Shown here one piece after another: positions 1-20,000 of a stretch of DNA of 20,000 bases (position 1 is the stretch's first letter; every line of letters begins with the position of its first letter). The notes beneath the pieces were generated by a model. The model was not told the origin of the DNA, searched no databases, and saw only the letters and a list, made by a program, of their open reading frames with translations. Source of the DNA: Psammoneis japonica (lineage: Eukaryota); NCBI GenBank assembly GCA_008632985.1, contig QPGO01000119.1, positions 246,294 to 266,293 of the forward strand. The letters run 5' to 3'. Both the position numbers and the translations under genes were made by a program.

Positions 1-783
1 CAAATTGAAGCGCTGGGCAACGGCAGCCAAAGAGTCAGTGTCACAGGTGAAATCAGTGTTAAAGTCCCCAAAAACAATGACTTCTCAATTGGAATCCGCC
101 AGAAAATCCTGCAAGACTCGGGACAAGTCTGCACAAAATGCCTTCCTGGGATCGAGTGACGGCGCCCCAATTGNCCGGAGGAGGGCCAATTGTTGAGCAC
201 ATGCTGTTGTCTTCCCTGGGTGTTGTTGGTTCTTAGCGCAAACTCGACAGCAAGAGACAAACACAACTTGGCGTCCATTCCCACCGTCGAAGACTTGAAT
301 TGACCACCTGCCGAGCGGGTCGGATTCTTGAGTCCGGAAGCAAGCAGAAATCGAATTACATGACAACAAGGCCATTCCACCCGGTTTGCATTGCATTGCA
401 AAGGTGGTGGAACTGCTTGAAAAGGCAGACCGCCCATGATGTAAAGACTTGGAAACGGCAGATCTGCACATGGATGAAATGTCGAATTGGGTGGTGTCGA
501 GGCACACCTCCGAGATGCCAATGACATCGGCTTGAATTTCGGAGGCGAGTTGACAGCACTTGTTCACATCACCGCCACGCTTGTCGAATTTACAACCGTT
601 GGCATTGAAGGCGTAAAGGCGCGCATGGTGAGAAAGCTTGGGCCGGAGTTCGTCGCCCACAGGTGCGTTGGTCTTCAGTCGAGAAAAATCTATCCGACGA
701 TCTGTGGGAGGGTGGCAACTGCGTCCGTCTAGGACATTCTGCCAAGCGAGAGCTGGATCTTCAGCAGAAGGCGAATGACTCAT
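1..783 (-). pseudogene. LINE ORF2, N-terminal apurinic-like (APE) endonuclease domain with a premature stop
   Basis: Motifs YAFNANG, DVIGISE, (C)KPGG, DPLGRWS, VSC(C)RVC, DPRKAF. After the in-frame TGA at 87-85 the same frame reads EVIVFGDFNTD (GDFN motif) and stays open to base 1. Confidence 0.88.
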
Positions 784-832
784 TGTTGGGCCATGCTCCT
801 CCGAAGAGAAGACTGAGGCTTAGAGCACTGCA

Positions 833-2749
833 TTAACTTGGTGTTGGCTTGGAAGGAAAAACTCCGGCATCGTGAAGTCCGACGGAAAATTGATGTTGGC
901 GCAAGTGGTGAGTGGGGCGAGGAAGCAACATCAGGAGGTCGCCTGATTTCTTGAGGGGGTGGAGGCGGTGAAGTCCAACCCCTGCCTGAAAATCCGTCTC
1001 CCGTTCTTTGTGGTCGCCAGGGCGTTCAGGAGTTTCCATGTTGTTGGGGCGTTTTCTGGCTGAACTCTGAACAGGTTGGTTTGCTTGAAGCAGTTGAACA
1101 ATTTGGTTCATTTGTTCCTGCACTGCAGCCAACTGTTGGGAATGCTGAAACTGCATGGTGGCCATGTCCTGGGAGTGTTGTTTGGTGAAGGTGTTGTGCA
1201 AAGCTTCCACATCCTGAGAATGCTGTCGGCGGAGATCTGCCAGAGCCGCATCGTTCTTCTGTTGCATTTGTGACAGGGTCTGTTGCACTTCCGCCATCTG
1301 TGCTGACGTGAGGGAAGAACTTGTAGACGACTGAGTCGCTTGAGCGCACAAATGCGGAGGGGACGAGATTCCTGGGTGTCCAGAACATCCGCAAGGAGTT
1401 GCCTGGAAGGAGGGCCTGGGGGCGAAGATTTGCGGAGTGACTGACGGGCTTGGAGAGTGGCCTCGACCAGGGGTGCTGCCACGACCATGGCCTCTGCCCG
1501 CGAACTGTGCCGGAGGAGGAGGACGGTTTGACCTCGAGGCCTGGGTGTCCGTCAATGGAGATACGTCTGAGAAGGTTGGGGACTCCAAACTGCGGATGCT
1601 CGCAGACACTGTGGATTTGCTGGTGTCGGACTGCTCGTCAAGCACACCAGACACGTGAGGTTGATCGGGAAACGGAGGAGACGGCCAAGATTCTTTGGGG
1701 ACATTTGGAATTTGATCCATGATGCATGTGGAGATGCCAGCACGGGAAGCTTTGAAATCCGTACGTTTGACCAACACATTGTACCGACCAGGGGTGGCAC
1801 TAGACTTGCAGATCTCTTTCACTCCGGAGATGGCCCTGATGTGGTTTTCCAAATAAAACATCACATCCGGGGAGGTGCACAACAGCGGAACCACGCAAGC
1901 ATCATGATTGCGACGAGCTTGGAGTTTGACAGCGTTATAGAAGGCGAGTGGCGACATGCACCGTGTCTTTGCCACAACAATGTGTGTCGGCAGCTTGTTG
2001 GAGGCGTGCAGCAAGGTTTTTCCTGCAGTGCGGCAATCGTCTTGTTGCACTTCGATGGCACAAGTGACGGTGCGAAGGGGAGGAGCCAATTGATCGTCAT
2101 CGGCACGAATGGAGGTAGGTGCGAGACGAAATTTCGGCATCTTGGACTTGAATTCGCCCAGATCTTTTGCAAACAACTTGGTAGCTTCGTCGATCGGAGT
2201 GTGCTTGGATGGGGCAGCGACGCAACATGCCGGAGTCGCCGTGTCGATCACTGGCTCATTCCAGCAGTGGCGCTTCAAACCCATGTTGTTTGAGTCTAAA
2301 ATGCTCTGAATATGAGGATGAGAACAGATCTCTCGAAGGGGGACTTTGGTCAAAATACGGTGGCACAGGCGGTGGACGACAGGGCGTTTTTCTCCACTGC
2401 GAGTCGCAGAAATCGTGAAGTGACGTTCGTGCTGAAGGGTTGCAATCCATTCTGCAATGTTGACATTGGTGATCTGGTTGTTGTGGTTGTCCAGGATCTG
2501 AACATCGTTGTGATACGTGAATAGGATTTGTTGCAAAACTTGAAGATGAGCGGTGGTGAGGGTCATCGGCTTGCACGTCGCCTCCGGGCCACGAACATCA
2601 AAGCGTGGGGTGATCTCCACATAGGGAGGCTCTTTCGGTTTAGAAGAAGGTTTGTTGGATGCGTGATCAACAGTGATATCGTCCGCCATATTGATATCGT
2701 TGTTATCGTTGGGGGTATGGCTACCGTCAGCGACGGAACGAGACGCCAT
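833..2749 (-). CDS. LINE ORF1 (638 aa; low-complexity and Gln-rich coiled-coil-like C-terminal part), probably mutationally damaged
   Basis: Long ORF directly upstream of the APE ORF2, same strand and same TpA depletion; Cys/His at many positions where Tyr would fit (HCWNE, TCAIEV, ACVVPL, EICKS). Confidence 0.78.
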   Translation of the reverse strand: MASRSVADGSHTPNDNNDINMADDITVDHASNKPSSKPKEPPYVEITPRFDVRGPEATCKPMTLTTAHLQVLQQILFTYHNDVQILDNHNNQITNVNIAEWIATLQHERHFTISATRSGEKRPVVHRLCHRILTKVPLREICSHPHIQSILDSNNMGLKRHCWNEPVIDTATPACCVAAPSKHTPIDEATKLFAKDLGEFKSKMPKFRLAPTSIRADDDQLAPPLRTVTCAIEVQQDDCRTAGKTLLHASNKLPTHIVVAKTRCMSPLAFYNAVKLQARRNHDACVVPLLCTSPDVMFYLENHIRAISGVKEICKSSATPGRYNVLVKRTDFKASRAGISTCIMDQIPNVPKESWPSPPFPDQPHVSGVLDEQSDTSKSTVSASIRSLESPTFSDVSPLTDTQASRSNRPPPPAQFAGRGHGRGSTPGRGHSPSPSVTPQIFAPRPSFQATPCGCSGHPGISSPPHLCAQATQSSTSSSLTSAQMAEVQQTLSQMQQKNDAALADLRRQHSQDVEALHNTFTKQHSQDMATMQFQHSQQLAAVQEQMNQIVQLLQANQPVQSSARKRPNNMETPERPGDHKERETDFQAGVGLHRLHPLKKSGDLLMLLPRPTHHLRQHQFSVGLHDAGVFPSKPTPS

Positions 2750-2814
2750 GGTGTATCGGCAGTTCTACGGAGAGCGTGGTACTAAAAACACGTAGGTATA
2801 TTCAGTACAAGTAA

Positions 2815-4159
2815 TCGCAGAATTATACCACAAAAAAGTCAGTAGGGGGGCATGTCAAAGGTCTTTCGTCCTGCAAACGTTCGGGAACCTTTGAAACGTA
2901 CGCCCTTGTGGAACACACGCTGCACGATCCCGACGAGAGCAATGAAGAGATATTTCCAATCCTTGAAAGCGCATTTCGTGACACGTACAATGCTCTTAAT
3001 GCCCCCAGTCAAGAAGAGCATGTTTGCGACATGGATTCGAAACGGGTTGTGGAGAGAGTCACGGTGGTAGAGACGGACCACATCTTGAAACACATGGAAG
3101 GCCACAAACTCACCTCACGAAACTTTCTGTATAGAGTCACTGGAAGTTGCGAAGGTATTGGCTGCACAGAAGACACACATCTCTTTGACGTCGGCAATCG
3201 TAGAAACGAGGAGAAGGTCCTTTCTGTGTTGGCGGACAAGACGCCAACAACCTGCGAGTGCGCTGGAGGCCTTACCGAAAATCGCGCACCCATGGAGGCA
3301 GAATTCAGAGATGCTTTCCAAGAAGCGCTCTTCGAGACTGAGGCTCATGGAAGCTTATCGAATTTGAAATCGGTGAACACTGTCATAGAATATGGGGTGG
3401 TTAACTGCGATTGGCAACAAGATGTGTTTGAAAGTGACTATGACTTGGATTTCACTTGTGATCCCTTGGAGAAAGACTTTGGCTATCTCGGTGACAGTTT
3501 CTTGAACGAATACAACTCTGCCGCAACGTAAGTCCAGGAATATTTTTCGTCAAACACCGCATTCAAATATCTCACACTAACCGCTTTCACTATCACGTCC
3601 ATGCAGGTCCTACTGCGACCCAGAGTTCCGCTACATTACGGAAGTGAGTGTCCAAGACGAAGAGCAGCCAATGCTAAGACACAGAGATTTGAATATTGTA
3701 ACAAAGCAGCAAAAGAAGAGGAGCCTTCGGTTTAGAGTCAAGGGTAGGTGTAGGGGGTGCGGGGAAAATGCCCGTCTCTTCAATGACGCTTCTGACAGGA
3801 AGCTCCGTGTTTTAACTGATGCTGGCGATGTTACGTTTGATTTTCGCCACATTTATGACGGCCACGACGAGTGCTTTTGCGCACTGAGAAATGAAGGACA
3901 AACAGCTCAGTCTCAGGATGAATTTGTGCAGAGGTATAATGATGATCTGGCAAGAGCAAACATGAAAGGATTTTTGGGAAGGAAGTATGGTGTAACTGAA
4001 ATGACTTTACACGAAGTTATTGAAAGTATTAAAGAATTTCTAAGTGGCGTTGACTGGGAAAACCGAGATCGAGTCGGGGGTGGATTCCATGGCTTGGACT
4101 ACAGTGACCGGCAGAAACGAGATCGAGACATGGATGATCGGACGAGACGACTGAAGTGA
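2815..4159 (+). CDS. Cys-containing two-repeat protein of unknown function, spliced join(<2815..3527,3607..4159); start codon not found
   Basis: An intron joins ORFs 2908-3531 and 3644-4159 in frame (YNSAAT-SYCDPEFRYITEV). Two homologous repeats: F..[TE]YN...CD...R...V; [YF]RV.G.C.G(..)C.....LF; C.C; EF...[FY]...L. Confidence 0.75.
3528..3606 (+). other. Spliceosomal intron, 79 nt
   Basis: GTAAGT donor at 3528, CTAAC branch point 3577-3581, TGCAG acceptor ending 3606; removal deletes the stop and restores the repeat motif. Confidence 0.88.
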
Positions 4160-4769
4160 GTTGGGCACATACTTGGTTCACTATATACTACTTCTATAAG
4201 CAGCTTATTTACTTCTCCTCGTGCCTAGTTTAGAAAAGTCAAAAAGACACTAACACCAACTTGTCGGTATCCTCAAACGACGGCAGCGAGGACGAGAATC
4301 AGGATTCCATCACGGCTGTGAGCAGCGCTGGCGTTGAGAGTTTTCAAAGGCACTTATTGAACTAACAAGCGAACGAGACATGAAACGCTCATGTCATCGT
4401 TCCATGTTCCCGATATTGTCCTTAGGCACTCTAGCAAGGAACTGAACTTGTCCCGGTTCAGCTCGCCGTAGTTCTTTCAAAGATGAGTTTCGCGCGGGGG
4501 CAAATGTACGTAGTGAATCTGGCAATACAGGATTCAAAGGACGCTTGCAAAAGTCGTCGCTGCCCCCAAAGAGGCGAACTTCTGAACAATTCACATGACT
4601 CCTTCAATCTTTGCTGCTAGCTTTTTGAGTCCTCTCACGTGCTTCTTCTGCATCCCAATATAAGGATATCCTTGTTCATCATTGTAGCTGAAATGAGCAT
4701 TTAGCATGGATAGTCATTCACACTCCAGCAAGGTACTCCCAATACCCTTGGTAAACTTTGCGTCCTCCG

Positions 4770-4784
4770 CCCCCCCCCCCCCCC
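4770..4784. repeat. C15 homopolymer
   Basis: 15 consecutive C. Confidence 0.95.
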
Positions 4785-4904
4785 GTTCAGTTTTGCCGTC
4801 GCGTACTTGTAGAATCCAATCGCTTCATTGTGACAAGTGTAAATAAAAGTAGAACGTATTGAAAGTCATCCCTCCTCTAGCTAGAACTTCTTTGATGAAA
4901 TAAA

Positions 4905-6911
4905 TTACATTTTCTTTCCAAACTTGAAATTTGGATCCAACAATGGTTTCCTGCGACGAGAGGAACGCCTCACGCCGGCAGTTGGACTCGCCGCTGCAGG
5001 AGTCTCTTGCTGCGAGCTCGTGTCATTGGAAGTCCCATTCTCCGGTTTCAAGGCATCATGGTTCTCTTCGTTTACTTTCTCGGTTTGTTTTTCTTCTTGC
5101 TTGGCAATCTGTACCTCTTGCTCCTTTTTGCTGGTGGCTGTAGTTTGTTTCCCTTTTTCTTGCTCCTCTTTGGCTTGTGCCTCTGGCTCCATTGATTTGG
5201 TAGTTTTAGATTGTGTCTCTTCTCCTTGCTTTTCTTTAGTGCTACTAGAATCGGATGATGATGATGATGTAGAAGAAGAAGATGATGATGACGACGAGGA
5301 GGCGGAGCTACTAGAAGAAGACGATGATGAGCTCGTACTCGACAAATCCTCTTCCTCCTTCTTGGATCCCTCTTCTTTCTGTGCCTCTGGTGAAACGACA
5401 CCCTTTTGCTCGTCATTGTCGGGTACACGATCCACTACGCTGTCTTGGTCTGGATCAATGTCACCTTTTCCTTTGTCACGCTCCTTCTTGTCGCTTGGTG
5501 AATCCGGGATCACGTTGTCTTTGTCTTTGCCAGGCTCCTTCTTGTCGTTTGGTGAATCCGGGATCACGTCGTTTGTTTTCTGTTCTGGCGAATCAGGCTC
5601 TATTTCCTCTGGCGGATCTTCTTGCGTGACTGGTACTGGAGCATGTTCTTCGTCTGGCTTGGATGACGAAGAAGAACTTTCGCTTGAACTCGAAGAGGAA
5701 GATGATGACGAACTCGAGCTGCTGCTGCTACTACTGCTACTACTACTTGTAGTTGAGCTCGAATCATCCTCGTCTTCATTTTCGTCGGCCATGTCTGTTT
5801 TAGCTTTTGATTCCTCATGGTTGCTAGGTCCGTCCTCTTTGTTAGCAGTTGAATCGTTCTTTGCTTCTTTTGCGTTTTCCTCTTTATCTTCAACACTTGT
5901 CCCCATCCCTTTTATCGCGCCATTCACAACACTTGATTCCTCATTAGCTTCTTCGTTGGTGTCGTCTTTTGTTTCCTCTGTCTCTTTCACAGTGGGTTCC
6001 GTCTCTTCTGTTCCGCTGCCATTAGCTGCTGTCTCGGGCCCATTTGCCTTTGCGGTAGCCTCATGCGCCTTTTCATCAGGACTGGCCAGAGCGGAAGACG
6101 TTGCAGTGTCTATCTTTTCCGAGGCAATTGCAGCAGCAGCTGTAGTAGTCGCCTGTTCCTTGTTGGCAGTTGAAGCCAAGCTAGCCACTTTGGCCGCCTG
6201 CAGGATACTGTCTTTTCCTGCTTCTTCTTCGGTTGGTGGCGATGCCTCCTTGTGATAGGCATTGTTCAATTCCTCTTCCGTATCCATGTGACTCGTCGAG
6301 GAGCCTGAAGATGAATTCGAGGACGACGATGCTGCTGCAGATGCATCACTGTTGTCTTCATTGTTATCTGCTGCTGCGTCTTGAACCACCCACCCCTCTA
6401 CAGCTCCTCTTCTTGGTGGTTCATATGCCAACGTCATGGTTGTGGAAAGAGGCGGTGTTGGATCATCGCAATTGATGGGATCATTGTCGTTTCTGCGTTC
6501 ATAATCATACACCCAATACTCGACAGGCTCCAACCACAACGTAACATGATATTGTTGACCCGGTGGTAACAAATCGGCTATACAACAAAAGGGATCCCAA
6601 AACGTTTCGTGGCTTCCCACTTTATGATAGGCTCGAACAAAATAACGATAATGAGCAACGCGCTGTTGTTGTTCACGTCGTTGTGGTTCCATTATAATGT
6701 TCATTCGTATTCCCTGTCGAAAATTGCACCAAAAATCAATAATTTTGTCTCCTTGTGGTAAATGGGGAAAATACCACCACGTTGCTAAACCTCCTCGCTG
6801 TATGATTTCCAAAATCCAATCGGCAACCGTTGCCGAAGACTTTGGAATCAACGTTGTCATCAAGGCGGTATCGGAAGACCAGTCAACATTGATTGTAGCC
6901 AACGATGACAT
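4905..6911 (-). CDS. Hypothetical 668-aa protein: ~150-aa globular N-terminus, long acidic/poly-Ser disordered region, basic C-terminal NLS-like motif
   Basis: ATG-to-stop ORF of 2 kb; poly-Ser tracts with mixed codons; VIPDSP.DKKE duplicated with 54-bp period (~5480-5515 and ~5534-5569); RRSSRRRKP near the C-terminus. Confidence 0.8.
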   Translation of the reverse strand: MSSLATINVDWSSDTALMTTLIPKSSATVADWILEIIQRGGLATWWYFPHLPQGDKIIDFWCNFRQGIRMNIIMEPQRREQQQRVAHYRYFVRAYHKVGSHETFWDPFCCIADLLPPGQQYHVTLWLEPVEYWVYDYERRNDNDPINCDDPTPPLSTTMTLAYEPPRRGAVEGWVVQDAAADNNEDNSDASAAASSSSNSSSGSSTSHMDTEEELNNAYHKEASPPTEEEAGKDSILQAAKVASLASTANKEQATTTAAAAIASEKIDTATSSALASPDEKAHEATAKANGPETAANGSGTEETEPTVKETEETKDDTNEEANEESSVVNGAIKGMGTSVEDKEENAKEAKNDSTANKEDGPSNHEESKAKTDMADENEDEDDSSSTTSSSSSSSSSSSSSSSSSSSSSSESSSSSSKPDEEHAPVPVTQEDPPEEIEPDSPEQKTNDVIPDSPNDKKEPGKDKDNVIPDSPSDKKERDKGKGDIDPDQDSVVDRVPDNDEQKGVVSPEAQKEEGSKKEEEDLSSTSSSSSSSSSSASSSSSSSSSSTSSSSSDSSSTKEKQGEETQSKTTKSMEPEAQAKEEQEKGKQTTATSKKEQEVQIAKQEEKQTEKVNEENHDALKPENGTSNDTSSQQETPAAASPTAGVRRSSRRRKPLLDPNFKFGKKM

Positions 6912-7556
6912 ATTGTGAATATATGAGTACAGTATATTTCAAGAATACAAGAAGACTGCAACAAACACAATCAATTTAGCAGTCGCTGCAACCTTTTCCA
7001 TTTTCTTGTGAAGCACTTTTATTGTGTGGGGTGCGTCGGAAGCTGAGAGCAGAGACATCACGAAAGATCTTTGACGCGCGACGACAGACTTTTGCGCGGG
7101 AATCTGAGCGAGCGAAGGACAGGCATTTGCGCGCGAAACGAAGGATGATTTTCTTCGATCCAGTGTGACGACTAACTCGACCAGATTCTCGCATTTTCAA
7201 TTTCGGCTTTGACCGCACACATGCTTAGTGCGGTACAACCCGCTGCGCTTGCATTGTGTAAATAAGAATCGGGTTCTAATGTTGCAGATGCAGGAGATGT
7301 TCGTTTCATGTTGGTTCTTTTTCGGATTTCGTTGGTTGCTCTCAAAATTTTTATTTTCTGTGACTTGCCGACCGCAGAACAAGAACCCACTTGTGATAGT
7401 TGAGTCGTGCGAAGGCGAGGCTTGCCTCATTTTTTCTTCACATCGATCATCATTCACAATCAAAAATAGTTTCAAACTGGAGCTACAGGTCAGCTTTGGC
7501 AGTTCACAAACACTTCAAGACCATTTTTTTGTTTCCTTCTACTGCGGTTGGTGTCA

Positions 7557-8546
7557 ATGAGGAATAAGGAAAATGCTTCTTCCGCAAGCGACGAAGATGC
7601 AGAAGCGACTGCTGCTGCGTCTCGGCAGGAAAGTACCCGTATGATCCGCAGTCATCTCGATGCACATTTGGCATTGAATCCAAACTCCTCTTATGTATCA
7701 TGGATCGCTACACTTCACCCTGAAAATGCCCATGTTACCATTGATCCTCGTTTCTTTACTCCAGACAATCCGTGGAAAACTGTCTATGAAGAAGGAAGAG
7801 CTACTACGACGCACCACGTGACGGGTGTACCCGTGGCTAATAACGGAGAATCTGAGTCGGAACAAGCATCCAACACAGCCGCTCCATCCGAAACTCCAAG
7901 GAAACACGGTGGTTTGTTTGCTTGTGTCTTTGGCTTTACCATTGCTCTCATTGCCGTCCTTTGTGCCTTCATACTCGAGACAACCTCTGCTCCGTTTTAT
8001 CTCGTGGCGGTTGGTTTCCACAAGATTTGCCACTGCTGCAAGCTCAACGTATTGACCTTTCTTCCTCTATCCATTTTTTGGATTATGCTTCAAGTGTTTT
8101 TATGGACAGACATCCTTTTGCTCTGGGTCAATGTCTTGCTTGTCGAGCTCTTGGCCGTAACAAATGCCATGATTTGTACCCTCTTTTCGTTGGACTGTGG
8201 TGTGGGTAAAGCGTGGCACCAACACACGCGGCGTTTGGCTCACTACACTCGTTGGGCCTTTCGAATGCCCTTTCAGGAATGGAAGAATCCCCCCAGGTCA
8301 AACTGTTGTCCAGTGGCCACGGCCAATGAGGAAGAGGTTGAGGACGCCGTCAACGTGGTGATGGTTCGGGAGTGTTGCATTACGGATCGTCATGATGGCG
8401 CTGATGCGATTCACCAGGACTCCATTCCATCTGTGCCAGCGACTGCTCCAACAGAAGACGAAGAAGAACACGTCGTGGTCATTCCCCAAGATAGTATCGT
8501 CATTCTTGATGATGAAGATCAAGAGAAGGACGTTGAGTACAAGTAG
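7557..8546 (+). CDS. Hypothetical multi-pass membrane protein (~329 aa)
   Basis: First in-frame ATG at 7557; N-terminal SSYVSWIATLHPEN segment, 3-4 hydrophobic stretches, acidic tail. Confidence 0.8.
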   Translation: MRNKENASSASDEDAEATAAASRQESTRMIRSHLDAHLALNPNSSYVSWIATLHPENAHVTIDPRFFTPDNPWKTVYEEGRATTTHHVTGVPVANNGESESEQASNTAAPSETPRKHGGLFACVFGFTIALIAVLCAFILETTSAPFYLVAVGFHKICHCCKLNVLTFLPLSIFWIMLQVFLWTDILLLWVNVLLVELLAVTNAMICTLFSLDCGVGKAWHQHTRRLAHYTRWAFRMPFQEWKNPPRSNCCPVATANEEEVEDAVNVVMVRECCITDRHDGADAIHQDSIPSVPATAPTEDEEEHVVVIPQDSIVILDDEDQEKDVEYK

Positions 8547-9050
8547 TAGGACCGGAGAAAGCTGGTTTGATACAGTCGTGCATTATAATATGCACTGCAA
8601 TTCTTAATTGTAAGAATTTTGTTTCGAATTAGTGTGTTAAACTGCATGTGTTGTGTAAACAATCTCTTTTAGTGAAAATTCCACAAAGACAAATAGAAAA
8701 TCGAATATACTCGCACGCGCCTCTTTCGTTATCGTGGTAGATATCAGCGTGAGGCTGCTTGCAAAGGAAACGAGATTCTAGCTGTTCTCGAGAATAGTCC
8801 GAGAGGATCCGAAGCATCGAAACAAACTGTTCGACCAGTACTTTTTCTCCAACGGTTTTGTTGCGTTGACCTCAAACGAGGAAGAATCAAAAGACAAACA
8901 GTAGTTTCCAATCCAAGTCGAAGGCTGCTCCGGTGCGTTCTGGCGTTACGAGCCATGTCGAGTTGCTACGCCTGGTCTCTAGAGGCGGCCTTCGGATCTC
9001 TCTAATTCGATCGCAAAATAACTTAATACCAATAATCTATTTGACTCTGA

Positions 9051-10904
9051 CTAATAGTCAGCCATATCGTCACTGTCGAAGAGGCAGCTTTGCCCTAACC
9101 TCCGAGTCTCGTCATATGGCCCACGAGAGTGTAATTCACCACCACCTTGTGTAATGCACTTGAACCACGCTAGATCAAAATCCTTATCCATGGGAGTCTC
9201 CGGGTGAGACTCAATCTCTTCCTGGAAATCTCCATACTCCCATCCGTCGTCACCGTCCATGACGACATTTCGGGTGATACCAATTAAGGCATCTACAGCA
9301 TGTTCAATCTTGCCACCTTTGCTAAAGTAGTGTCGTACCTTGCGCTCATCAAAGCTAATATAGAAACATCCCAATTGTTGTCGAATGCAATATACAGTCG
9401 GTACCCTGCCTTTGTGTAAGATGTACATCATGATCTCCCACAGATGGAGCCACGTGTCAACAAAACTCTGATAAAGTCCTTCGGGATGTTGCTGGAGAAC
9501 CTCGGCGGGAATGTAGGCAAGTCGACTCATTCCAAACACACATTGGGCAATGGAGGTAGGCCGACCAGGAGAAAAGAAAATGCCTTCATCTGAATGTTGA
9601 AAGTCCCTTTCAATTTCAGCAGTAATAGTCAATGCGCGGCGCATCCGCGGTGACATCCACCCGTCAATCAGCGACTCTTGCATGGACGGTGGCATGAGCA
9701 TCGAGGTGATTTCTAGCTCTGGAATGACATCCATATATCGTGGTGGGAGAGACTCTATCCCCATGGCGGCTTCAGAGTCATCCCGTGATTGTCTCGCATC
9801 CTCGACTATTTTGAGCGGCGTGTCACCATAGCGATTGGTTGCCATTGTATCTGCACCCAGAGAAATGAGATACCTAATGGCGTCATGGTTTTTCGATGCG
9901 GCAGCCACATGGATTGGCCGGTCACCGATTTCATCACCCTTCTTGATATCGCCACCCAACCGAACAAGGGTTTGAAGTATACTCAAAGTCTTAGAACTAG
10001 AAACACTGATCGCCACCGCAATGAACAAGGCTTTGGACTTTTCAATTGATGCCCCGCGCTGAATAAGATCTTGAAGTCGTGAGGAATAATCTTGTACAAT
10101 CGAGGACCTTGCTGATGATTCAATCGCTGCTGTTCTAGCAGACGAACCACTGCGCAACCACTCTTTTACAAGATTCTGGAGTTCCAAATCCAAACCTTGA
10201 GGCTGTTTCCGTTTTGGCTCCATGTAAAGTTCAATCTCTGAAGCTGATGCTTTGCTCAACCATTGTGATTTTGCGTAGGCGGGTGGATGATTGGCTTGAA
10301 AGTACATGGAGGACGTTAGAAACCATGTGTTCCACAATTCGGGTCGATTCCCCGCTTGCACAAACCCTAAACGAGCCCAGTGTCGAGCAATCTTGTGTTT
10401 GGCAGTTTCGAAATCTCCGTTTCCTCTATCTTCCCTTGAAAGAGAATTCGTCCAGTGTCCAATAGTGAGCGTCCCGGGTTGCAACACTGCCAGGCTCCAA
10501 GAATCTTTCAGTAAAACAAAAAGCTCATGAAGCAGTCGAAGTCCCAGATCGTTTCCTCTGTGGGACGGCTCCACCTCGACTTCTTCCAAAACGAGAAATC
10601 CACCTCTTGAGACACACGAGCTGTTTGAAGTCAATAATGGGTGATTGACTCGGTTGGCAATCCCGTGTTTTTCACAAAAGATACGAGCCATGTCAATGGT
10701 TTCTGCGGAAATGGCATCGGCAAACTCAAAGAAATGGCGCGACGGTCTGGGCAAAAGAGCCCCTCTGACAATCGCTGCAAGCTCGCCACCTTTCTCTTTC
10801 AATTCCATGGATATTCTGTATTCATTTTCATACTGGAGCTCCACTTTGTACTCTGTGCCGCCAGGAGGCCACGAAAAAAGACTTGACGAGTAGCGAACCA
10901 CCAT
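9051..10904 (-). CDS. Protein with N-terminal GNAT-like acetyltransferase region and central ankyrin repeats (617 aa)
   Basis: EVEVEPSHRGNDLGLRLL (GNAT motif A-like) and HWARLGF (motif B-like); ankyrin GDRPIHVAAASKNHDAIRYLISLGADTMATNRYGDTPL. Confidence 0.82.
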   Translation of the reverse strand: MVVRYSSSLFSWPPGGTEYKVELQYENEYRISMELKEKGGELAAIVRGALLPRPSRHFFEFADAISAETIDMARIFCEKHGIANRVNHPLLTSNSSCVSRGGFLVLEEVEVEPSHRGNDLGLRLLHELFVLLKDSWSLAVLQPGTLTIGHWTNSLSREDRGNGDFETAKHKIARHWARLGFVQAGNRPELWNTWFLTSSMYFQANHPPAYAKSQWLSKASASEIELYMEPKRKQPQGLDLELQNLVKEWLRSGSSARTAAIESSARSSIVQDYSSRLQDLIQRGASIEKSKALFIAVAISVSSSKTLSILQTLVRLGGDIKKGDEIGDRPIHVAAASKNHDAIRYLISLGADTMATNRYGDTPLKIVEDARQSRDDSEAAMGIESLPPRYMDVIPELEITSMLMPPSMQESLIDGWMSPRMRRALTITAEIERDFQHSDEGIFFSPGRPTSIAQCVFGMSRLAYIPAEVLQQHPEGLYQSFVDTWLHLWEIMMYILHKGRVPTVYCIRQQLGCFYISFDERKVRHYFSKGGKIEHAVDALIGITRNVVMDGDDGWEYGDFQEEIESHPETPMDKDFDLAWFKCITQGGGELHSRGPYDETRRLGQSCLFDSDDMADY

Positions 10905-11330
10905 GGCTGACGTGCGAATGTATAAGACACCGCTCTTATCGCCCGCAAAGAACCAACGAGACTTGTTTGTCTTAATGAAAGCAGTGGCAATAATTTATAC
11001 ACGTCCAATGAAACAGTAGATTCTTTTTCAACACCAAGAGTTGCATACAAGTAGCGGCACCGAACTGTCATGGCATTGATGCTTTGCGCGGCAATCTCAC
11101 AGTAAAGTATGGATAGACGTTACTAGACGTAGTATGAAACTCTTCAGATGCTGATGAGATTATTGAATTTTTTCGAAAAGTTTATTTTATTCTTTATTCG
11201 TACAGTATGGTAAAGAACTAATAAGACCATTGAATATTATCGAAAAATTTAGTTGAAGTCTATCATTTCTTGCGAACACCGATTTTTCTTTTCCAATAGC
11301 AATCTTTCGCGCTGTAGAGTCATTACGTAG

Positions 11331-11466
11331 AAATTGTGTAGGACAATACCATGACAAGTCTGTCTGTCTGTCCTTAGTGAATTTTAACTTTGCGAAAAAT
11401 TGTGTAGGACAATACCATGACAAGTCTGTCTGTCTGTCCTTAGTGAATTTTAACTTTGCGAAAAAT
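11331..11466. repeat. Perfect tandem duplication, 2 x 66 bp
   Basis: 11331-11396 is identical to 11397-11462, plus AAAT repeated at 11463-11466. Confidence 0.95.
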
Positions 11467-12534
11467 GGATTTGACTGTTTTCTGATCAGGCGTATTTTTC
11501 TTCAACACATTTGCAAAAATACGCCTGACCCGATAACAGTCAAGTCTATTTTTGCACAAATTGTGTGAACATAACAGTTTCATTACAAAAACGTGTAGAT
11601 TCTACAGGCGTCCATAATTAATTTATGGGTTATACGTCACGGGTCATTTTCAAAAGATTCCCATTGACTCTCTTGACTGCTGTCAGAATGATCCGTACAG
11701 TGCGGTAGTTGCAGATAGAGGATGCTTGCCATAAAGTATGATGTTCTTCGCTGATTGATTGGTGATGCGATTTTTGTCATGTTCGACTCTCAATTTGCAG
11801 CTGGACGCAACAAGACGATGTCTTCTGTTGCGACGATGGCGAGGGCGCGCACCAAGGCCATTCTGCCAGAATGCTTTGCTGAAGGGTTCTTGACGGTGTT
11901 TGCTGGAAATGGCTTTGTCACATTTGATCATTTCAGATGCCACAGGGTGTGTGTGGAAGTCTCCAATCTCATTTTACTGCACGTCCGAAGCCAGTGTGCG
12001 ACGAGAGCCGAGAGCATGCCTCCACTGCAGTTCAAACAAACAGTTTGAAAAGGCGGCCAGCATCGTCAGGCGTCAGCTCCTGCTAGAGAGGGCCCTAACT
12101 TGGGAAGGCATAACCCGCGTTTGCTTCGTGTCAAAAACCCATACGTGCTTCAACATAAATGTACACAGAAAAAAACGCGATACCTTTTTTCAAAGAACAA
12201 CCTTCGACAACCTTCTACACGTGTTGGATCCGCGAATCGAGCGTGGGATCCGCAATCGCGAGTTGCGGTTGATGGGATCAAAATATGCACTCCTTAATTT
12301 ATCATAAAGACACTCTCATATTTTGAATGGCTAATTTCATCGACGCCAATTGCCCTTTGGATGGTCGTGATCGAAAAAGTGTCGCGGCGCCCCAACATTT
12401 TTCCCAACGCACCTGTTTCCGCTTGCCTCTCATGCGTGCATCGCGGGCATCGCCAAGCACGTCTCACATCTCACACATCATGTAAAAAAATGAATGACAA
12501 CACAACTCGCAAGCACCAGCAAACTCAAGACAAA

Positions 12535-13107
12535 ATGGCGTTTTTCCTTTCATCGGATACCAGTATATCCTCTTTGGTAGAGCACGACCTGGCATCCACT
12601 TTTATCGACGACTTGACCTTTTCTTCAAAAGAATCTACTACTAACGCCGAATCGCAGAACGCTCCAAGTAGCATTCAGATTGACTTCCCACCTTCATCTC
12701 CTTTCGATGTATTTTTAGGAAAAGGCAAACGAATTCATGAACGAAATCGTTTATTTCACGAAGCTATCGACGAGAATCGAAAGCGTTACGCCGAGGCGAC
12801 GAACAAGCGAGAAAAGACAAGCATCACATACGAAATTATAAATGGGGTAAAATCGAAAGGAGGAAGGTTTCTTCAAAAAGATGACGCATCAGGAATGTAC
12901 ATTGAAGCCAGCGATAAAGTGGCTAGAGAAAAGGTGAGTCATGCACTGCGGGCTCCAAAGCCCGCTCGTCCATCGCTGCAACAAGGTGCCGGTAAGAAAA
13001 GAAAGAGGACCATTACTCAAATTGATCAAGAAAAACTCGAGAATTTGTTTTCAAGTCAACGTCAAATTTTCCAAGAGCTGTTGGAGTCGGAGGAGGATAA
13101 TGATTGA
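12535..13107 (+). CDS. DUF6824-type domain protein (family expanded in diatoms), ~190 aa
   Basis: DVFLGKG...NRLF...I...RKRY...KREKT.I..EII..VKSKGGRFL...DKVAREKVSHALR signature. Start taken at AAAATGG 12535; upstream in-frame ATGs exist. Confidence 0.85.
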   Translation: MAFFLSSDTSISSLVEHDLASTFIDDLTFSSKESTTNAESQNAPSSIQIDFPPSSPFDVFLGKGKRIHERNRLFHEAIDENRKRYAEATNKREKTSITYEIINGVKSKGGRFLQKDDASGMYIEASDKVAREKVSHALRAPKPARPSLQQGAGKKRKRTITQIDQEKLENLFSSQRQIFQELLESEEDND

Positions 13108-13872
13108 ACAAGTTCTTGCGGATCTGCCCAACGTGAGCAGAATGGTTGACTAAAAGGCGACGCGCCTATCCAATCCAATATATTATAGGTGACCAAGATC
13201 AATTAATAACTTCATATTAACGGATACATAGAGACACGAATCTTTTCCTTTTTCTCGTTGCTATGGACTCTAGATTGACTTTGGTTGTATCTACCACAGT
13301 ATCGCCGCCGAGTCAGGTCCGCGGGAGATGCCGGTACAGCGTATCGGCGGTTGCTTACCAGAAGATTGCAGAAAGTCTTGTTCCCGTCACGAATAATCAC
13401 GATTTTAAGGAATACCAAGGTAGTGGACATTTTGGTCTCGAAATCAATCATCTGAAAGCATCCTTTACAAGTTCCAAGGTGCACACTCGTTTGTTGAATT
13501 GTATCTCATTTTTCGAGGAGGCAAATGAATGCCATAATAATCTTTCCGTCTTTTCCATTGAGTTCTCCAAATGAAGTCAGAGTAATAGAGAGTTAGGAAT
13601 GCATTCAGACGTGACAAGGACAACATATCCCATCCGCTGATAACAGCACCAAGAAGACATCGGGACAGCTTCAAGATGTGGAAACGCACTATTCATTATT
13701 CTCCTTGAAGTTGCTTCTCGCACGTCTCGTTCGGTTTTGGAGTTGACCGGTAGAGAGCATGCGAGCTACGAGCTCCGGTATCTTTCCGTACTACCAGTAG
13801 ACCGTGTTGAAGCATGATAATATGTAGCTGTTGGCGTTGAAGCAGGGAAAGGGTATCGAAAGGAAACCGGCC

Positions 13873-14700
13873 ATGGCGTATTGGCGACAAGGATACCGTG
13901 ACTGGGACGATCCATGGTATGACGACAGTGAGGAAGAAGAGGAGGACATTACGTTTTACCGACCGGATGGGAAAACGGAACGCAAGAGCATAGAGTGGTG
14001 TCGATCCAATGGCTTTTTCGAGATTGAGGAGGGCCTGTGGTCCGGCGATTGGTACTGGGAACGTTTTCCCGAGAAAAAGAGAGAATTGGAACAAAAGAAG
14101 AGAAAAAGACAAGAAGATCTCAAGGATCCAAAGTATTGGGAAAAATGGCATGCGAAGCAGCGAGCAGATCGGCGGGCTAAACTCCTAGACGAAGTGTATG
14201 GCTCGGAGTACAGCAATGCACGAGCGCTTGCAGAGTTACGGAGAATGGGTGAGGAAGAGTATGAGTTTGAATGCCCCATTGTATGGTGCAAGAGTCGCTT
14301 CCCAACTAATGACGATATGCAAGAGCATGTGAGAGAACAATGCGGGAAAGGACATCATAAATACCGAGTTGAACATGGTATTCCGTTTGAAGGGATTGAT
14401 CCACTCGAAAAGAAAAAGTTAGAGCAACAACTACAAGAATTGGAACGCGAGTAATGGTTGCTTGAAGTAGAGTTAGAGGTCAGGCGTGAGTATGAGTTGG
14501 GTCCCAACAAACTATTGTACGCCGACAAGCACCTGTTTGATTTGGAGCTTGAGAATCGTCTGGACGAGAACCTGCTAGAGTTGGTTTACTGGCTAGAGTC
14601 TGTGCGATTGGCTCGATGCAACGCAAAAATGTGGGACGAGCAAGCCTACACACCAGAGCGATCATTTATGAAAAAATGGCTAGGGTTGGATGAACGTTGA
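13873..14700 (+). CDS. Charged hypothetical protein with a C2H2-like zinc finger; ends at 14454, or continues to 14700 through one in-frame TAA
   Basis: ATG 13873; FECPIVWCKSRFPTNDDMQEH motif; the same frame stays coding-like for 81 codons after TAA 14452-14454. Confidence 0.62.
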
Positions 14701-15329
14701 TTTTCAATTGGCGTGAACAAGAGTAGGACGACATTGCCACCAACTGAGGCTACATAACACTATTAACGGTAAAATCTTTGAGTCAATCGATGTGTCTACA
14801 GCGTGTTGTGTCCCTTAGATGATAAGGAATACTAGTACTACAGTACTTTCAACATGCACGCAGGTGCCGACAAATTACAACAAAAATGGCAACCGCTTGC
14901 TTGATGCGATGTCTGATTGATGACGTCCTTTTGCTTCACCCGAACATGAGGCATCTCCAGTCATGCGCGGGTGATGTGTAAGTAGAACTACTTTACTTTC
15001 GCATCTGTTTATCTGAATACGAATTGTCAACGGAGACTTGGAGTTCGTAATCCTTCGTTGTACTGTATGTGCAGTACAGTACCGTACTGAAGCTATCATC
15101 CGCGCCTGAGAAGGCTACCTTACGTACATTTCAACGTATCGTGAAAAGCGTGAATCAACTAATGGTAATTCGTATGACGATGGCGTCCCATGATGGATGC
15201 AGTAGCTCTTTGCTACACCTCCCGAAGTGGCCTCCCGACCCTCCGCCATGGCCATCCTTCTTTTTGCGGATCCTTTTCCCTGCTGTTCTTGCCTTTGCCA
15301 TCGTCTCCTTTCTCCATTCCCTTTCGGTC

Positions 15330-15840
15330 ACTCCCTTCGCTCCTTTCGCCTGTACATTTCTACGCCCCCTCTACTGGTCCCCAGTTTCCACGATTGCCAA
15401 CTGCCCTTCCAACTGCTCATTCCATTGCCCTTTCATTCTTCCTCACTCCCTTTCTTCATCCCAACAACTGCCCTCTGCCATTTCCCTTTCTACTCTTCCT
15501 TATGCCCTCTCTCCTTCTCCGCCTCGTTCGATTCTTTTCCCTATGGCCCCTCTTTGCCCCCTGACCTCTTCCCCACTTCCTCCTCTAGCAACCCCTTCAA
15601 TTGCCCCCCTTCCTCCCATGACTCCCTTCGCGCTTTTAGTTGTGACTCCTCTCCTATCGTTCCACATGCCTTTCTACGCCCCTCCGAACACGATTGCTTC
15701 CATACTCCTCTACAGCTTCCCCTACCCTTCAGCCCTCTCTACTGCCCCTTTCTCTTCCATGACTCCCTTCGCGCTTCTGCTTGTGCCTTCCCCCCTATGT
15801 TTCTATGCGCCCTCTACGATCATTCGTGTACGATTGCCCA
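15330..15840 (+). repeat. Three degenerate direct repeats in the element 5' region
   Basis: Ordered motifs ACTCCCTTCGC (15330, 15621, 15762), then TTTCTA(C/T)GC, then ACGATTGC in each unit. Confidence 0.75.
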
Positions 15841-15956
15841 CGTCATGCCTTCACCTTCCCTCCTCCTATCTTTCTACGCGTTCTGTGACCTTGTCGCTGT
15901 TTTTGGCGATCCGCACACAACAACGACTCTCTGCAACTTTCTCTTTCCGTTTGACC

Positions 15957-17619
15957 ATGTCCACTCTCGCCTCCGCTCCTCCTGCTGACGTTAAGCTTTT
16001 AGCTCAGGTCCTTCATCCTACTGACCTGCCTGACATGCCCACCATTGCTCTTGCGTCTGATGTCATTCGCGACATTGTTCTCAAGACGCCAGAGCATCAC
16101 AGCCGGCGTGTCTCTCCGCTCCTCCTCACTCTTGGCTCTGTGACGCTTGCTGAAACCAAGAAACGCTCCCACCCCCACCAGAATCAGTGGGCGTCTTACT
16201 TTCACGTTGCTCTTCACCCGGTGACGCCCGATGGCACCACCTTTGCCTTCGAATCCTTCCGCAGCCAAGCGCTCTCTTTTCTCCTTCAGAAATGGCATCT
16301 GCACCCTGCGTCGCACTTCACCCCCTTCCGCTCTGCCAGCTCCCCTTCCAATTTTCTCCACCCTGACTTCTCTCCGGTTTTGGCTGTGGACAATCCTTGG
16401 GCTCGACACTGCACCTTTGTGATCCCGGCCTGCAACTCTTTCGATGAAAAGGCTCGTGGCATCCTTGCTGGCCCCTCTCCAACCCTCTGCGGTTCTTCTT
16501 GACGCACTTCTGAGTTTCTCCTGTCCCGCCTTTGTTCCTTCCTTGTTGGCAAGATTTCCAGCACTGCGACCAATCCCATTCTTCAATCCTTCCGAGACTG
16601 TCCTGCCTTTCTTGGTCTCGTTGGAATTCGTCCTTCGCAATGCCCCGCTAACTCGGCCCAGGCGCGACGCTGTTCTCTTCCGGTTTTTTACATTTCTGCT
16701 GCCTCCGATGCCGTCTGGAACACCCCACTTCATGTCACCAATCCATCCAATGCGCCACCTGCCTCCTTCTCCATCCTGGGGACATCCACCACCATCATTC
16801 CCTTCCCAGCCCCGGCCAACTTTGCTTCCACCTACAACGCCCTCTCCGAGCAACATGAAAGTGGTTGTCTCTGACCATCTTCTCCTTCCTCTCACCCAAC
16901 CTGGCATCAGTCGTCTCCTTGCTGCAACCAATCTTCGCTCCCTTGTCCCCATCTTCTCTGCTCATGACTCCCTTCCAATCAAGTGCAAGCTGCTCTTTTT
17001 CCCGTCTCTGTGCACAATTGCTCTTGTGGATGCCAACCCACATGACTGTCCCAGCTTTCCCTTGGATCTCCTTGCCTCTGCGGCGGAATCTACCCATGAC
17101 GACAGCATGGCTTCCCCATCCTGTGCCTCTGCTGCTCTTCAGCCGCCTGCCCCCTCTCAAGATTCTTTCTCGTGTCGTGCCCTTGAGCTGCTTGCTCAAG
17201 ACTGGCAGCTCCCCAAACCCCAAGATCCGCTCCCCACTGCTGCATCTCCTTCCTCTCATCCTCCCCAAGCCCACTCCCTCACCACCGAGCCTCCTCCCTC
17301 CAAGCATCCCCACTCTTCTCCCGACACTTTCTCTCCGCCCCCTGCCATTCCTGCCGCAGTTGTGCAGACCTCTCCGCCCCCCACCACTCCCGATGCAATC
17401 ATGCAGACCGAATCTGATGACTCGGTTTCTCCTCAGCAGACCCAGCGCGAGATGGAACTCTTGGATGTCCTTGATGCCTTCGTAGGTGCTTGCTGCCCGG
17501 CCAGCCTTTCTGCCTGGAAACCTTTCTACGAAGAAGCCATCCGGGCTGCAGCCCCTGATGTCGACTCCCTCCGCGATCTCATTGCCTCGTGGAACCCACC
17601 GAAGCCCGTGCCCCGCTAA
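15957..17619 (+). pseudogene. Putative ORF1 of the CRE-like element, frameshifted near 16470-16500
   Basis: MSTLASAPP... frame ends at 16502 and overlaps a second frame running to TAA 17617-17619. The first frame is also open upstream to ATGs at 15162-15180, so the start is uncertain. Confidence 0.55.
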
Positions 17620-20000
17620 CCTGCCCCTTCTGCTCCTGGTCCCCTCCTTCCATTGATGCATCATCTCTTCCTGCCACTGTGCGCAGCCATCTTCGCCAGG
17701 AGCATCCCCGCCTCTCCCTTTCTCATGCACCTGCGTCCTTCTTTGATGCCGCTGGTTTGCATGTCTGCAGGCATTGCAATCACAGCCAATGCACCTGCCT
17801 GTCTGCCACCCACCTCCGCAATCACTTGCAGAACAAGCACTTTGCTCCTCGCTCTTCCCTCAACACTGACATTGTTCTCTCGTCCTTCCATAATCTGGGT
17901 GACTGGGGCCCCTCGCCACAATGGCTCCATGCTCTTGCACTCGAGCCTCCGCCTTTCCGAGCTTCCTGTCGCCGCAAGCTCTCGTCCTCTGCCCGTGAGG
18001 AACTCCACTCCGCTCTTCATCATGTGACAAGCTGGGCACTGGCCGCCTCCCAGCCCCCATCTGACCCCTCCCATCTCATTCCTACGTGGCAACGTGACTC
18101 TGCTCCCTTCTGGAAGCTTCTCTTGCTCTTTGAAGCTCTCGTTCTTGCTCCTGTCCCGCCACGCTCCAAGTTTGGCCCTGCCATTGCCTCCCGCTTGTCC
18201 CTCTTCCGCCGTGGCTGCATTCGCCAACTCTGTCACGAAGCCTGCTCCCACACGCCGTGCCTCTCCTCATCTTCCCCTGACTTTTCTGCTTCCACCTGCT
18301 GCCATTCCGCTCAAGTCTGCGCCGACGAAGATGACTTTCACTCGGCCCACTCCAAGCTCACCTCTGCACTTCCTGTTGCTGCCGTTGCTCCTGAGCGCCT
18401 TCCTGCCATCCTCAAGCTCTGCCCTCCTCGCCTGCATCCCTCCGACCTGCCCAATCCTCCTTCAACTCGCTCGGCCTCCTCCCTTCATGACGAGCCCATT
18501 GAGCTCTCCTCCGACGCTCTTCTTTCTGCTCTCTCCAAATGCAAGCCTGGGACTGCTGCCGGTGTCTTTGCTGATTCCACTGACCTCTTCAAGTCCTGCG
18601 CCCTTTGTTCCACCAAAACCCCGACAGGAGTTGCTCAACGTCCCTGCTTGTCATCCTTCCGTGAGCTTGTCCTTCTCCTGCTCCATGGCTCCATTCCTCC
18701 CTCCGTCCATTCCTTGTTTGCTTCAAACTGCTTTGTCGCTCTGCACAAAGATGCTGGCGACCTCAACAAGCTTCGCCCCATTGGTGTCGGCACTGCTCTC
18801 CGTCGCATTGCCGGCTCCATCGTCATGACTCTCTTTGGTTCTGCATTTGCCGAATGCCTCCTCCCAGATGGCCAATTTGGCATTGGTGTCAAAGGTGGCC
18901 TCGATTGTCTCACTCACTCTGCTCTTGCCAACATCGAACGATGTCTTTCTTCTGCCGACTCTGCCAAGGTTCTTCTTCTTCTTGACCTTGCCAACATGTT
19001 CAACAAAGCATCCCGAGATGCCTGTCGACACGTTCTCACCTCCACCCCTGCCTTCCATCCTCTGCTTCCTTTTTTTGACCTTCCACACCAAAGTTCCAAT
19101 GCATGTTGGTGTCGCCGACCCGATTCTTCCTGGGGCTCCTTTCTTCAAGAAGAGGGATTTGCCCAAGGATGCCCTCTCGGCCCTGTCTTCGCCAGCCCAG
19201 TCCTCTCTCTGGTTCTTCGTCCAATCAACCAAGAGCTTCAAGAACGAATCCCTGGCCGTTCCTCTGTCTCAGTTGGCTCCTGCGTTGATGATGCTCATGC
19301 TTTCCTTCCCCATTCGGTGCTCCCATGGTTCCTTGAACGCTTCTCCGCCCTCGGCGCTCCCTGCGGGATCTCCCTCAACCTCCGTAAAACCAAGATCCTC
19401 GCCTCCATTGCCGGTGTTAGCCCCATCCCTGCTCTCCCCCCTTCCCGTGCCGATTCTCTCCGTGCTGCACTTTCCTTCTTAAACCCCACCAATGACCCCT
19501 CTTACAACCCCGAACTCACCTCTGGCGTTCGCTTCCTCGGACAGCCCCTCGGCTCCCGCGACTTCGCCACCTCCTTCCTTTCCGATGCTTCCTCTGCTCT
19601 CTCCGACAAAGTTGACATGCTTCTCACCCGTCTTCATGACAAACAAACCCAGGCTCAACTCTTCAAGCACTGTTTTGTTCTATCCTCTGCTCACCTCCTT
19701 GGGGCTGACTTCCACCACAACTTCGACCCCGACAATCCTCCCGACCCCTTTCTCTGGACCTCTCCATTTCAAGATTTCCTCCTCACCGTTGCTCACCGCT
19801 TTCTTCACTGCGTCACTTCCTACGCCACTCCTTTTCCTGACCATTCTATTGCCATCGCCTTCCTTCCTGCCTCCTCAGGCGGGTTTGGTCTCCGGGATCC
19901 AACAGCTGCTGCCATTCCTTCCTTCTTGGTGTCGCTTCTCCGCTCATTCCGCTTTGCTTTGCACGGTGTCAGCCTGCCATCTGGCGCTTCTGTTTCCCTT
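17589..20000 (+). pseudogene. ORF2: two C2H2 zinc fingers + reverse transcriptase; frame open to window end but catalytic motif altered
   Basis: Hand translation, 804 codons without a stop: CPFC..HLRQEH, CRHC..HLQNKH, KLRPIGVGTALRR, QFGIGVKGG, LLDLANMFN, GFAQGCPLGP, SCVDD (19278-19292), LNLRKTKI, GVRFLGQPLG, LPASSGGFGLRD. Confidence 0.92.

Follow-up and report, generated by a model that had tools for sequence, protein, structure and literature searches.

Bounded loss of TpA, with A>G and T>C on the sense strand, in a non-LTR retrotransposon of Psammoneis japonica

What has removed most TpA dinucleotides from the body of a retrotransposon, and did the process meet the element as RNA, as cDNA or as duplex DNA? 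The question is raised by a 20,000-nt stretch of Psammoneis japonica (contig QPGO01000119.1, positions 246,294-266,293, forward strand; hereafter the window), which holds the 5' part of a non-long terminal repeat (non-LTR) retrotransposon, called element 2 here, on its right-hand side. All coordinates below are window positions, and residue numbers are those of the second open reading frame (ORF2) of element 2. Within a sharply bounded domain of this element, ~80-90% of TpA has been lost. A first-pass annotation of the stretch had claimed that A>G and T>C changes both lie on the sense strand of ORF2 and stem from editing of duplex DNA and not from RNA editing of the ADAR type. The features of element 2 are as follows.

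15162-20000, + strand: element 2, 5' part of a non-LTR retrotransposon with zinc fingers and a reverse transcriptase (RT), cut by the window end
15162..15989, + strand: 5' untranslated region (5'UTR) of element 2, C/T-rich, TpA not depleted, with a 141-nt spaced internal repeat
15589-15662 and 15730-15803: repeat D2 in the 5'UTR
15990..16502, + strand: ORF1 of element 2, ATG at 15990, frame broken after 16502
17589..20000, + strand: ORF2 of element 2, two C2H2 fingers and RT, 804 codons open, cut by the window end
16022..20000, no strand assigned: TpA-erased domain of element 2, continuing to the window end

The edges of the erased domains were placed by a two-rate change-point fit on the probability of A after T. 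For element 2, the fit set the edge at 16022 (likelihood-ratio statistic 35.7), 32 nt past the ATG of ORF1, with P(A after T) at 0.092 before this edge and 0.015 behind it. The TpA counts and observed/expected ratios (o/e) of the segments of the window, including those of a second element (element 1) at its left end, were:

16020-20000, element 2 body: 17 TA in 3981 nt, o/e 0.10
15162-16019, element 2 5'UTR: 26 TA in 858 nt, o/e 0.71
4501-15161, between the elements: 440 TA in 10661 nt, o/e 0.56
1-2500, element 1 body: 23 TA in 2500 nt, o/e 0.17
2501-4500, element 1 5' part: 85 TA in 2000 nt, o/e 0.62

Past 16022 the plateau is flat, with TA o/e of 0.00-0.19 in eight 500-nt bins and no 3'-to-5' gradient. 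The interval between ORF1 and ORF2 (16503-17588, o/e 0.13) is depleted like the ORFs themselves, and because this non-coding stretch is equally depleted, codon usage is not the cause of the TpA loss. The two products expected from a change of A to G on either strand are both raised: o/e values for TA, TG and CA were 0.10, 1.52 and 1.25 in the body and 0.71, 1.35 and 1.05 in the 5'UTR, which corresponds to -26 TA, +16 TG and +20 CA per kb from 5'UTR to body (a rough baseline, as UTR and coding sequence differ). GC content stood at 0.569 in the body and 0.534 in the 5'UTR.

ORF2 was then compared with its subfamily in a 42-row alignment consisting of the window, 8 relatives with metagenome-contig DNA and 33 protein-only relatives. 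Each DNA-bearing row was set against the majority residue of the other rows at conserved columns (leave-one-out), single-base paths were sorted by mutation type and neighbouring base, and the 8 DNA-bearing relatives, treated in the same way and pooled, served as controls (449 differences). Against its 41 relatives, ORF2 carries 76 differences at 321 conserved columns. A>G after T makes up 16/76 in the window versus 8/449 in the controls (Fisher P = 2e-9), and T>C before A makes up 7/76 versus 4/449 (P = 2e-4), so the claim that both directions occur and follow TpA holds; T>C elsewhere was found in 0/76 versus 11/449. Other classes in the window were A>G after C (6, plus the start codon), G>A (3/76), C>T (8/76), transversions (20/76) and multi-step differences (15/76). 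The result was stable for conservation thresholds from 35% to 70%. At columns conserved to at least 70%, 7 + 4 + 2 of the 17 window differences were of the TpA type (11) or A>G after C (2), compared to 2/137 of the TpA type in controls. A>G or T>C of any context accounted for 13/17 at this threshold and for 29/75 at 50%, where 20 transversions and 15 multi-step differences accompany them; only with a close ancestor could these be told from ordinary divergence.

A parallel picture was obtained from residues and dinucleotides. The nine columns with a Tyr consensus in the subfamily alignment read Cys at six, His at two and Tyr at none, and the other six NAN>NGN residue pairs were changed at 2/47 columns. 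All five second-position T>C events gave codons ending in A (CCA three times, TCA, GCA), and 31 of the 292 NCN codons of ORF2 end in A. At 29 dinucleotide sites with TA in at least half of the DNA-bearing relatives, the window has TA at 0, TG at 8, CA at 7, CG at 2, TT at 6 and others at 6; the controls kept TA in 54/127. Tyr amounts to 2/804 residues of ORF2, compared to a mean of 2.5% and a minimum of 1.3% in 60 relatives of at least 700 aa, and Cys to 3.9%, compared to a mean of 1.7% and a maximum of 2.9%. The changes within codons are tied to the TpA context, and the replacement at conserved sites is TG or CA.

The example codons named in the first-pass annotation, whose six coordinates and codons were all as given, were examined in the same 60 relatives and in the subfamily alignment, and five of the six are supported. 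Three TGC codons are read as TA>TG, at 18420..18422 (Cys 278 in LKLCPP; relatives Y 22, H 15, F 13 of 52), at 18729..18731 (Cys 381; Y in 40/53) and at 19281..19283 (Cys 565 in the Y-x-D-D motif of the RT; Y in 45/60). On the T>C side, CCA CAC at 19083..19088 (Pro 499, His 500) derives from Leu-Tyr by two adjacent TA>CA changes (L in 83% of the subfamily; Y in 52/58), and CCA at 19197..19199 (Pro 537) from Leu by TA>CA (L in 78% of the subfamily). Pro 537 could also be followed in sister copies, taken from contigs of a public sequencing run holding many copies of the element 2 family (40 of 250 variant rows listed): 5/5 sister-copy contigs have T at 19198 (CTA, Leu), and the change is private to the window copy. 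The remaining example fell away, as CAT at 17760..17762 (His 58), taken for a former Tyr, is matched by H 11, Y 6 and F 4 of 26 relatives, and His is probably ancestral there.

Ordinary divergence of an old copy, combined with compositional bias, UpA avoidance or GC-biased gene conversion and with no targeted process, could draw on the transversions and multi-step differences (35/76 together), on a C/T-rich strand that is a trait of the subfamily and on TpA being mildly low everywhere (o/e 0.56 between the elements). Against this, the 8 DNA-bearing relatives of the same composition keep a TA o/e of 0.43-0.62 and 2.1-3.2% Tyr, and the leave-one-out controls contradict it. The edge lies inside one element, between segments of like composition, and GC-biased conversion would not stop at TpA, whereas T>C away from A was found in 0/76. 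ORF2 is moreover stop-free over 804 codons, which speaks for slight decay, and we consider this explanation very improbable.

Concerning the strand on which the changes arose, TpA is its own reverse complement, so that A-to-G on either strand reads as TG and CA on one strand. ADAR-type A-to-I editing of a double-stranded sense RNA intermediate would yield sense A>G only. The largest single class in its favour is A>G after T (16/76), and ADARs favour U before the edited A, as noted in a preprint (bioRxiv 10.64898/2026.01.13.699255). The seven T>C events before A (7/76 vs 4/449 in controls, P = 2e-4), however, reject a pure A>G process; the five second-position T>C events all yield NCA codons, and at three CA sites the 3 to 5 sister contigs among the rows listed all have TA. 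Sense-only RNA editing is excluded because T>C before A is also present, as had been argued at first pass, and ADAR-type editing is the least probable of the explanations considered here, with next to no chance of being correct.

The raw ratio of sense A>G to T>C at TpA was 16:7, and its reading depends on what a protein comparison can make visible: a TA across a codon boundary shows the TG path only, a TA at positions 2-3 shows nearly only CA, and only Tyr codons show both. From the TA sites that the 8 relatives have at these conserved columns, the events expected to be detectable under a 1:1 process number 98:82, and the detectability-corrected TG:CA ratio is ~1.9:1. The observed 16:7 is compatible with 1:1 (P = 0.21) and with 2:1, sits uneasily with 4:1 (P = 0.10) and is inconsistent with 1:2 (P = 0.002). 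The strong strand asymmetry that would speak against duplex editing was looked for and none was found; both directions are real, without strong asymmetry shown.

The same pattern recurs in element 1, which is encoded on the opposite strand.

1..2749, - strand: element 1, non-LTR retrotransposon unrelated to element 2, TpA-erased from the window start to ~2621
833-2749, - strand: ORF1 of element 1
85-783, - strand: endonuclease ORF of element 1 (Pfam Exo_endo_phos, E 2.7e-5, 24.4 bits vs cut-off 24.5)

Its change point at 2622 lies 127 nt inside ORF1, an edge position resembling that of element 2. On the + strand, TG and CA occur at 100/kb vs 72/kb in the body and at 71 vs 68 in the 5' part, so in its own sense element 1 would be leaning to T>C. 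A protein search with ORF1 of element 1 detected no relatives.

Sister copies and metagenome relatives were used to ask how copies of element 2 differ from one another. Among the rows listed, the window has CA where 3, 5 and 5 contigs all read TA (18251, 18578 and 19198, respectively) and TG where another copy has CA (16052/16053). One contig of depth 568 spans the 5'UTR and stops at 16039; the listed body pieces and joints have depths of ~59-76 each, with the exception of 16110-16504 (depth 378). This depth pattern fits copies that are alike in the UTR and have diverged individually in the body. The differing places in the sequencing run comprise C>T 82, T>C 59, G>A 37, A>G 38 and transversions 28, with no split by context, and the four transitions are about equally frequent per base in the body, which fits independent resolution of TA between copies and, equally, plain transition drift. 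Over 15216-16039, within the spared 5'UTR, 33/824 positions differ in a sister copy, mostly by C<->T outside TpA, with 5 of the 32 listed at TA, TG or CA; ordinary divergence between copies is thus ~4%.

Among 80 metagenome loci of the element 2 family, 4 are TpA-poor (TA o/e: L014 0.05; L021, positions 1-2500, 0.22; L040 0.28; L065 0.31), and the other 76 are at 0.43 or higher. L014 and the unerased L005 share 75% identity over 3533 nt, so that the fate of individual sites can be followed: 146 TA sites of L005 read CA at 56, TG at 49, TC at 17, TT at 6, TA at 6, AA at 5 and CG at 4 in L014, while other dinucleotides of L005 are retained at 50-67%. Element 2 itself gave only short blastn matches to the 80 loci (47-289 nt, 66-83% identity), and near-length, shorter-length and exhaustive searches found no protein relatives of ORF2 closer than ~41-51% identity.

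These observations favour integrated duplex DNA as the substrate of the process, at a probability that we put at roughly 0.7. It is favoured because of the step edge and flat plateau at 16022, because in two unrelated elements the 5'UTR has escaped although RNA and cDNA carry it together with the body, because contig depths look as if copies were alike in the UTR and individually diverged in the body, and because sister copies still have TA where the window has CA. A further reason is that, according to the preprint (bioRxiv 10.64898/2026.01.13.699255), integrated viral DNA of Bigelowiella natans acquired this spectrum de novo in culture lines. Of the original claim of duplex-DNA editing, therefore, the both-strand, TpA-tied change stands, the His 58 example does not, and the integrated duplex substrate is retained as the best reading. 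The alternative that has to be weighed here is a TpA/UpA-specific single-strand adenine deaminase acting at each retrotransposition, first on the RNA template (sense A>G) and then on first-strand cDNA (sense T>C), before the copy is fixed as DNA. Such an enzyme would account for both erased domains lying within elements and for TA returning near the element 3' end in L014 and L021; copy-specific states would fit as well, since non-LTR copies are separate events, and the raw 16:7 lean to A>G could reflect heavier editing of the RNA. It is confronted by the step and flat plateau, where a gradient of single-stranded time would look different, by the sparing of a 5'UTR that is part of the same RNA and cDNA, and by the B. 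natans spectrum having arisen in DNA that was already integrated, and we regard it as unlikely, though less so than the two explanations discussed above.

Several observations weigh against action on both strands of integrated DNA. Ancestral states for element 2 were deduced from relatives at ~40% identity, and the 35/76 transversions and multi-step differences mean that a share of the divergence is ordinary. The raw 16:7 leans to A>G, as do the Tyr codons (6:2 when counted in the subfamily alignment, 8:2 in the wide one). Relative to its closest relatives, the window has less A (0.14 vs 0.17-0.22), more G (0.18 vs 0.12-0.16) and unchanged C, and TG classes have gained ~56 per 1000 codons with no gain in CA classes, so that a sense A>G bias of up to ~4:1 is possible. 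An opposite lean is seen in the sequencing run, where the best-supported private differences among the rows listed are three CA-for-TA sites and one TG-for-CA site, and where C>T (82) exceeds G>A (37). Six of the 16 first-codon-position A>G changes are preceded by C and not by T; double changes (TA>CG), weaker action on CpA or drift at a later time could explain them, and the scarcity of TA>CG doubles in L014 (CG 4/146) is unfavourable to the first of these. CpG is also lower in the body than in the 5'UTR (o/e 0.68 vs 0.86), and CpG decay likewise yields TG and CA; the erased domain may also be a methylated domain. Finally, both erased domains are confined within elements, with flanks unaffected in the window, and TA returns toward the element 3' end in L014 and L021, which also fits editing at retrotransposition.

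In the mechanism that we propose, a host process would rewrite the body of element 2 from about the start of ORF1 onward, with the A of TpA becoming G on either DNA strand and the sense strand thereby receiving TA>TG and TA>CA. The change would take place in integrated duplex DNA after insertion, its chemistry would be deamination of adenine to hypoxanthine, and a chromatin or guide signal may span the element body and skip the 5'UTR; its purpose may be the disabling of mobile DNA. More specifically, and only tentatively, the pattern could represent a genome defence, guided by chromatin or small RNA, in which the adenine of TpA is deaminated on either strand of mobile DNA once integrated, from approximately the first ORF start, with the 5'UTR/promoter spared and frames left open.

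We next consider what kind of element was hit and what state it is in. The repeat edge at ~15162 is marked by a loose end and a depth jump in the sequencing-run contigs. Similarity of ORF1 extends over ~16032-16821, where it matches the ORF upstream of ORF2 in L005 and L004 (E 4e-12, tblastn with X at stops). A search with ORF2 yields 2192 relatives at E<=0.001, of which the top-ranking one shares ~41% identity; ORF2 contains RVT_1 (33.3 bits vs cut-off 29.6); a Pfam scan of ORF2 returned no domain besides RVT_1, so there is no apurinic/apyrimidinic (AP) endonuclease ahead of the RT. The finger residues C12, C15, H34 and H39 together with C60, C63, H79 and H84 are conserved in 19-28 of the 20-28 relatives aligned there. 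Past alignment column 1095, the relatives share the conserved residues D, G, D, H, C, K, E, P, D, D, T, H and K, and the window stops at residue 804. This post-RT Cys/His motif with acidic and Lys columns in the relatives is, judged by sequence, typical of a restriction-like endonuclease (RLE), and the type of element 2 is presumably the one that goes under the RLE-type clade names (R2/CRE/NeSL-like).

ORF2 has no stop codon in 804 codons, even though the Tyr of Y-x-D-D and eight other conserved Tyr residues are lost, because TA>TG and TA>CA create no stop and remove TAA and TAG; for the same reason, long ORFs appear in other frames. As ORF2 is still stop-free, ordinary mutation since the erasure has been slight. 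We take element 2 for a non-LTR retrotransposon copy of the RLE type that is in all probability dead. That the open 804-codon frame might be a live gene was considered and rejected, since the process makes no stops and catalytic Tyr residues are gone. The first codon of ORF2 (17589-17591) is GTG with C before it, and 88% of aligned relatives begin with Met; the process may have altered the start codon as well.

The sense strand of element 2 is 68% pyrimidine, the 5'UTR is equally C/T-rich, and the ten closest metagenome-contig relatives have a pyrimidine share of 0.64-0.70 with a TA o/e of 0.43-0.62. An origin of the C/T-rich strand in the process was rejected, given that transitions keep the purine share and that the spared 5'UTR and the relatives are alike; because both have it, the C/T skew is ancestral to the subfamily.

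Elsewhere in the window, the following features were recorded:

174: a single N
4905-6911, - strand: 668-aa ORF with Ser runs and acidic residues, no Pfam match
opposite 4905-6911, + strand: 443-aa mirror ORF, probably a low-complexity artefact
11331-11462: perfect tandem duplication of a 66-nt unit in an AT-rich intergenic stretch
12361-13107, + strand: 248-aa ORF with a DUF6824 domain (E 5e-21)

How does this scar compare with known systems of targeted mutation? Repeat-induced point mutation (RIP) of ascomycete fungi turns CpA into TpA, giving an AT-rich product and creating stop codons. The element 2 pattern resembles RIP in that dinucleotide-specific transitions on both strands wreck repeated or mobile DNA within sharp limits, but it runs the other way, destroying TpA, raising GC from 0.534 to 0.569 and being unable to create a stop. 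ADAR hyperediting of viral and retroelement RNA in animals produces A>G on one strand with U/T preferred before the A, and shares with element 2 the A>G change and the preceding U/T; unlike it, element 2 also has T>C before A. APOBEC3-type editing of retroelement cDNA in animals leaves sense G>A, and is similar as a host deamination hypermutation of retroelements, whereas G>A makes up only 3/76 in element 2. The decay of methylated CpG to TpG and CpA is alike in giving TG and CA from a palindromic dinucleotide by change on either strand, and CpG, too, is lower in the body; here, however, the source is TpA, A is changed and not C, and the loss is deeper (0.10 vs 0.68).

The closest counterpart is TpA hypermutation in B. 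natans, where mutation-accumulation lines showed A>G and T>C at TpA only, arising de novo in integrated giant-virus and virophage DNA (Mettrop et al., bioRxiv 10.64898/2026.01.13.699255). The same text proposes adenine deamination by an ADAT2-like enzyme, finds RT domains enriched among TpA-poor coding sequences, and takes up RIP, ADAR and APOBEC3 editing in its discussion (bioRxiv 10.64898/2026.01.13.699255). Both cases share TA>TG with TA>CA, a GC-enriching effect, a drop in TpA with a rise in CpA and TpG, and the location in bounded regions of foreign or mobile DNA. They differ in that B. natans shows new mutations in culture lines and the window an end-state scar; that the targets are integrated viral DNA there and non-LTR retrotransposons of another lineage here; that the viral region has an o/e of 0.45 there, compared to a near-saturated 0.10 here; and that 5'UTRs are spared in the window elements. 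A literature search at the level of listings found no report of a TpA-only spectrum in diatoms, and within the collection searched only the B. natans preprint describes it.

For genome annotation, these results mean that long open frames in TpA-erased DNA are not evidence of live genes, and for the dating of transposon copies that divergence is inflated by the process. The search for the enzyme is narrowed by an action that is both-strand, bound to TpA and bounded by a step, pointing to a reader of duplex DNA within a marked domain. Until now, the case for TpA-only hypermutation of invading DNA has depended on one preprint and one alga; a scar of this kind in non-LTR retrotransposons of another lineage, together with 4/80 metagenome loci (TA o/e <=0.31), suggests that the process is widespread. 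If this is true, its occurrence here and in a chlorarachniophyte would amount to a widespread 'reverse RIP' of algae.

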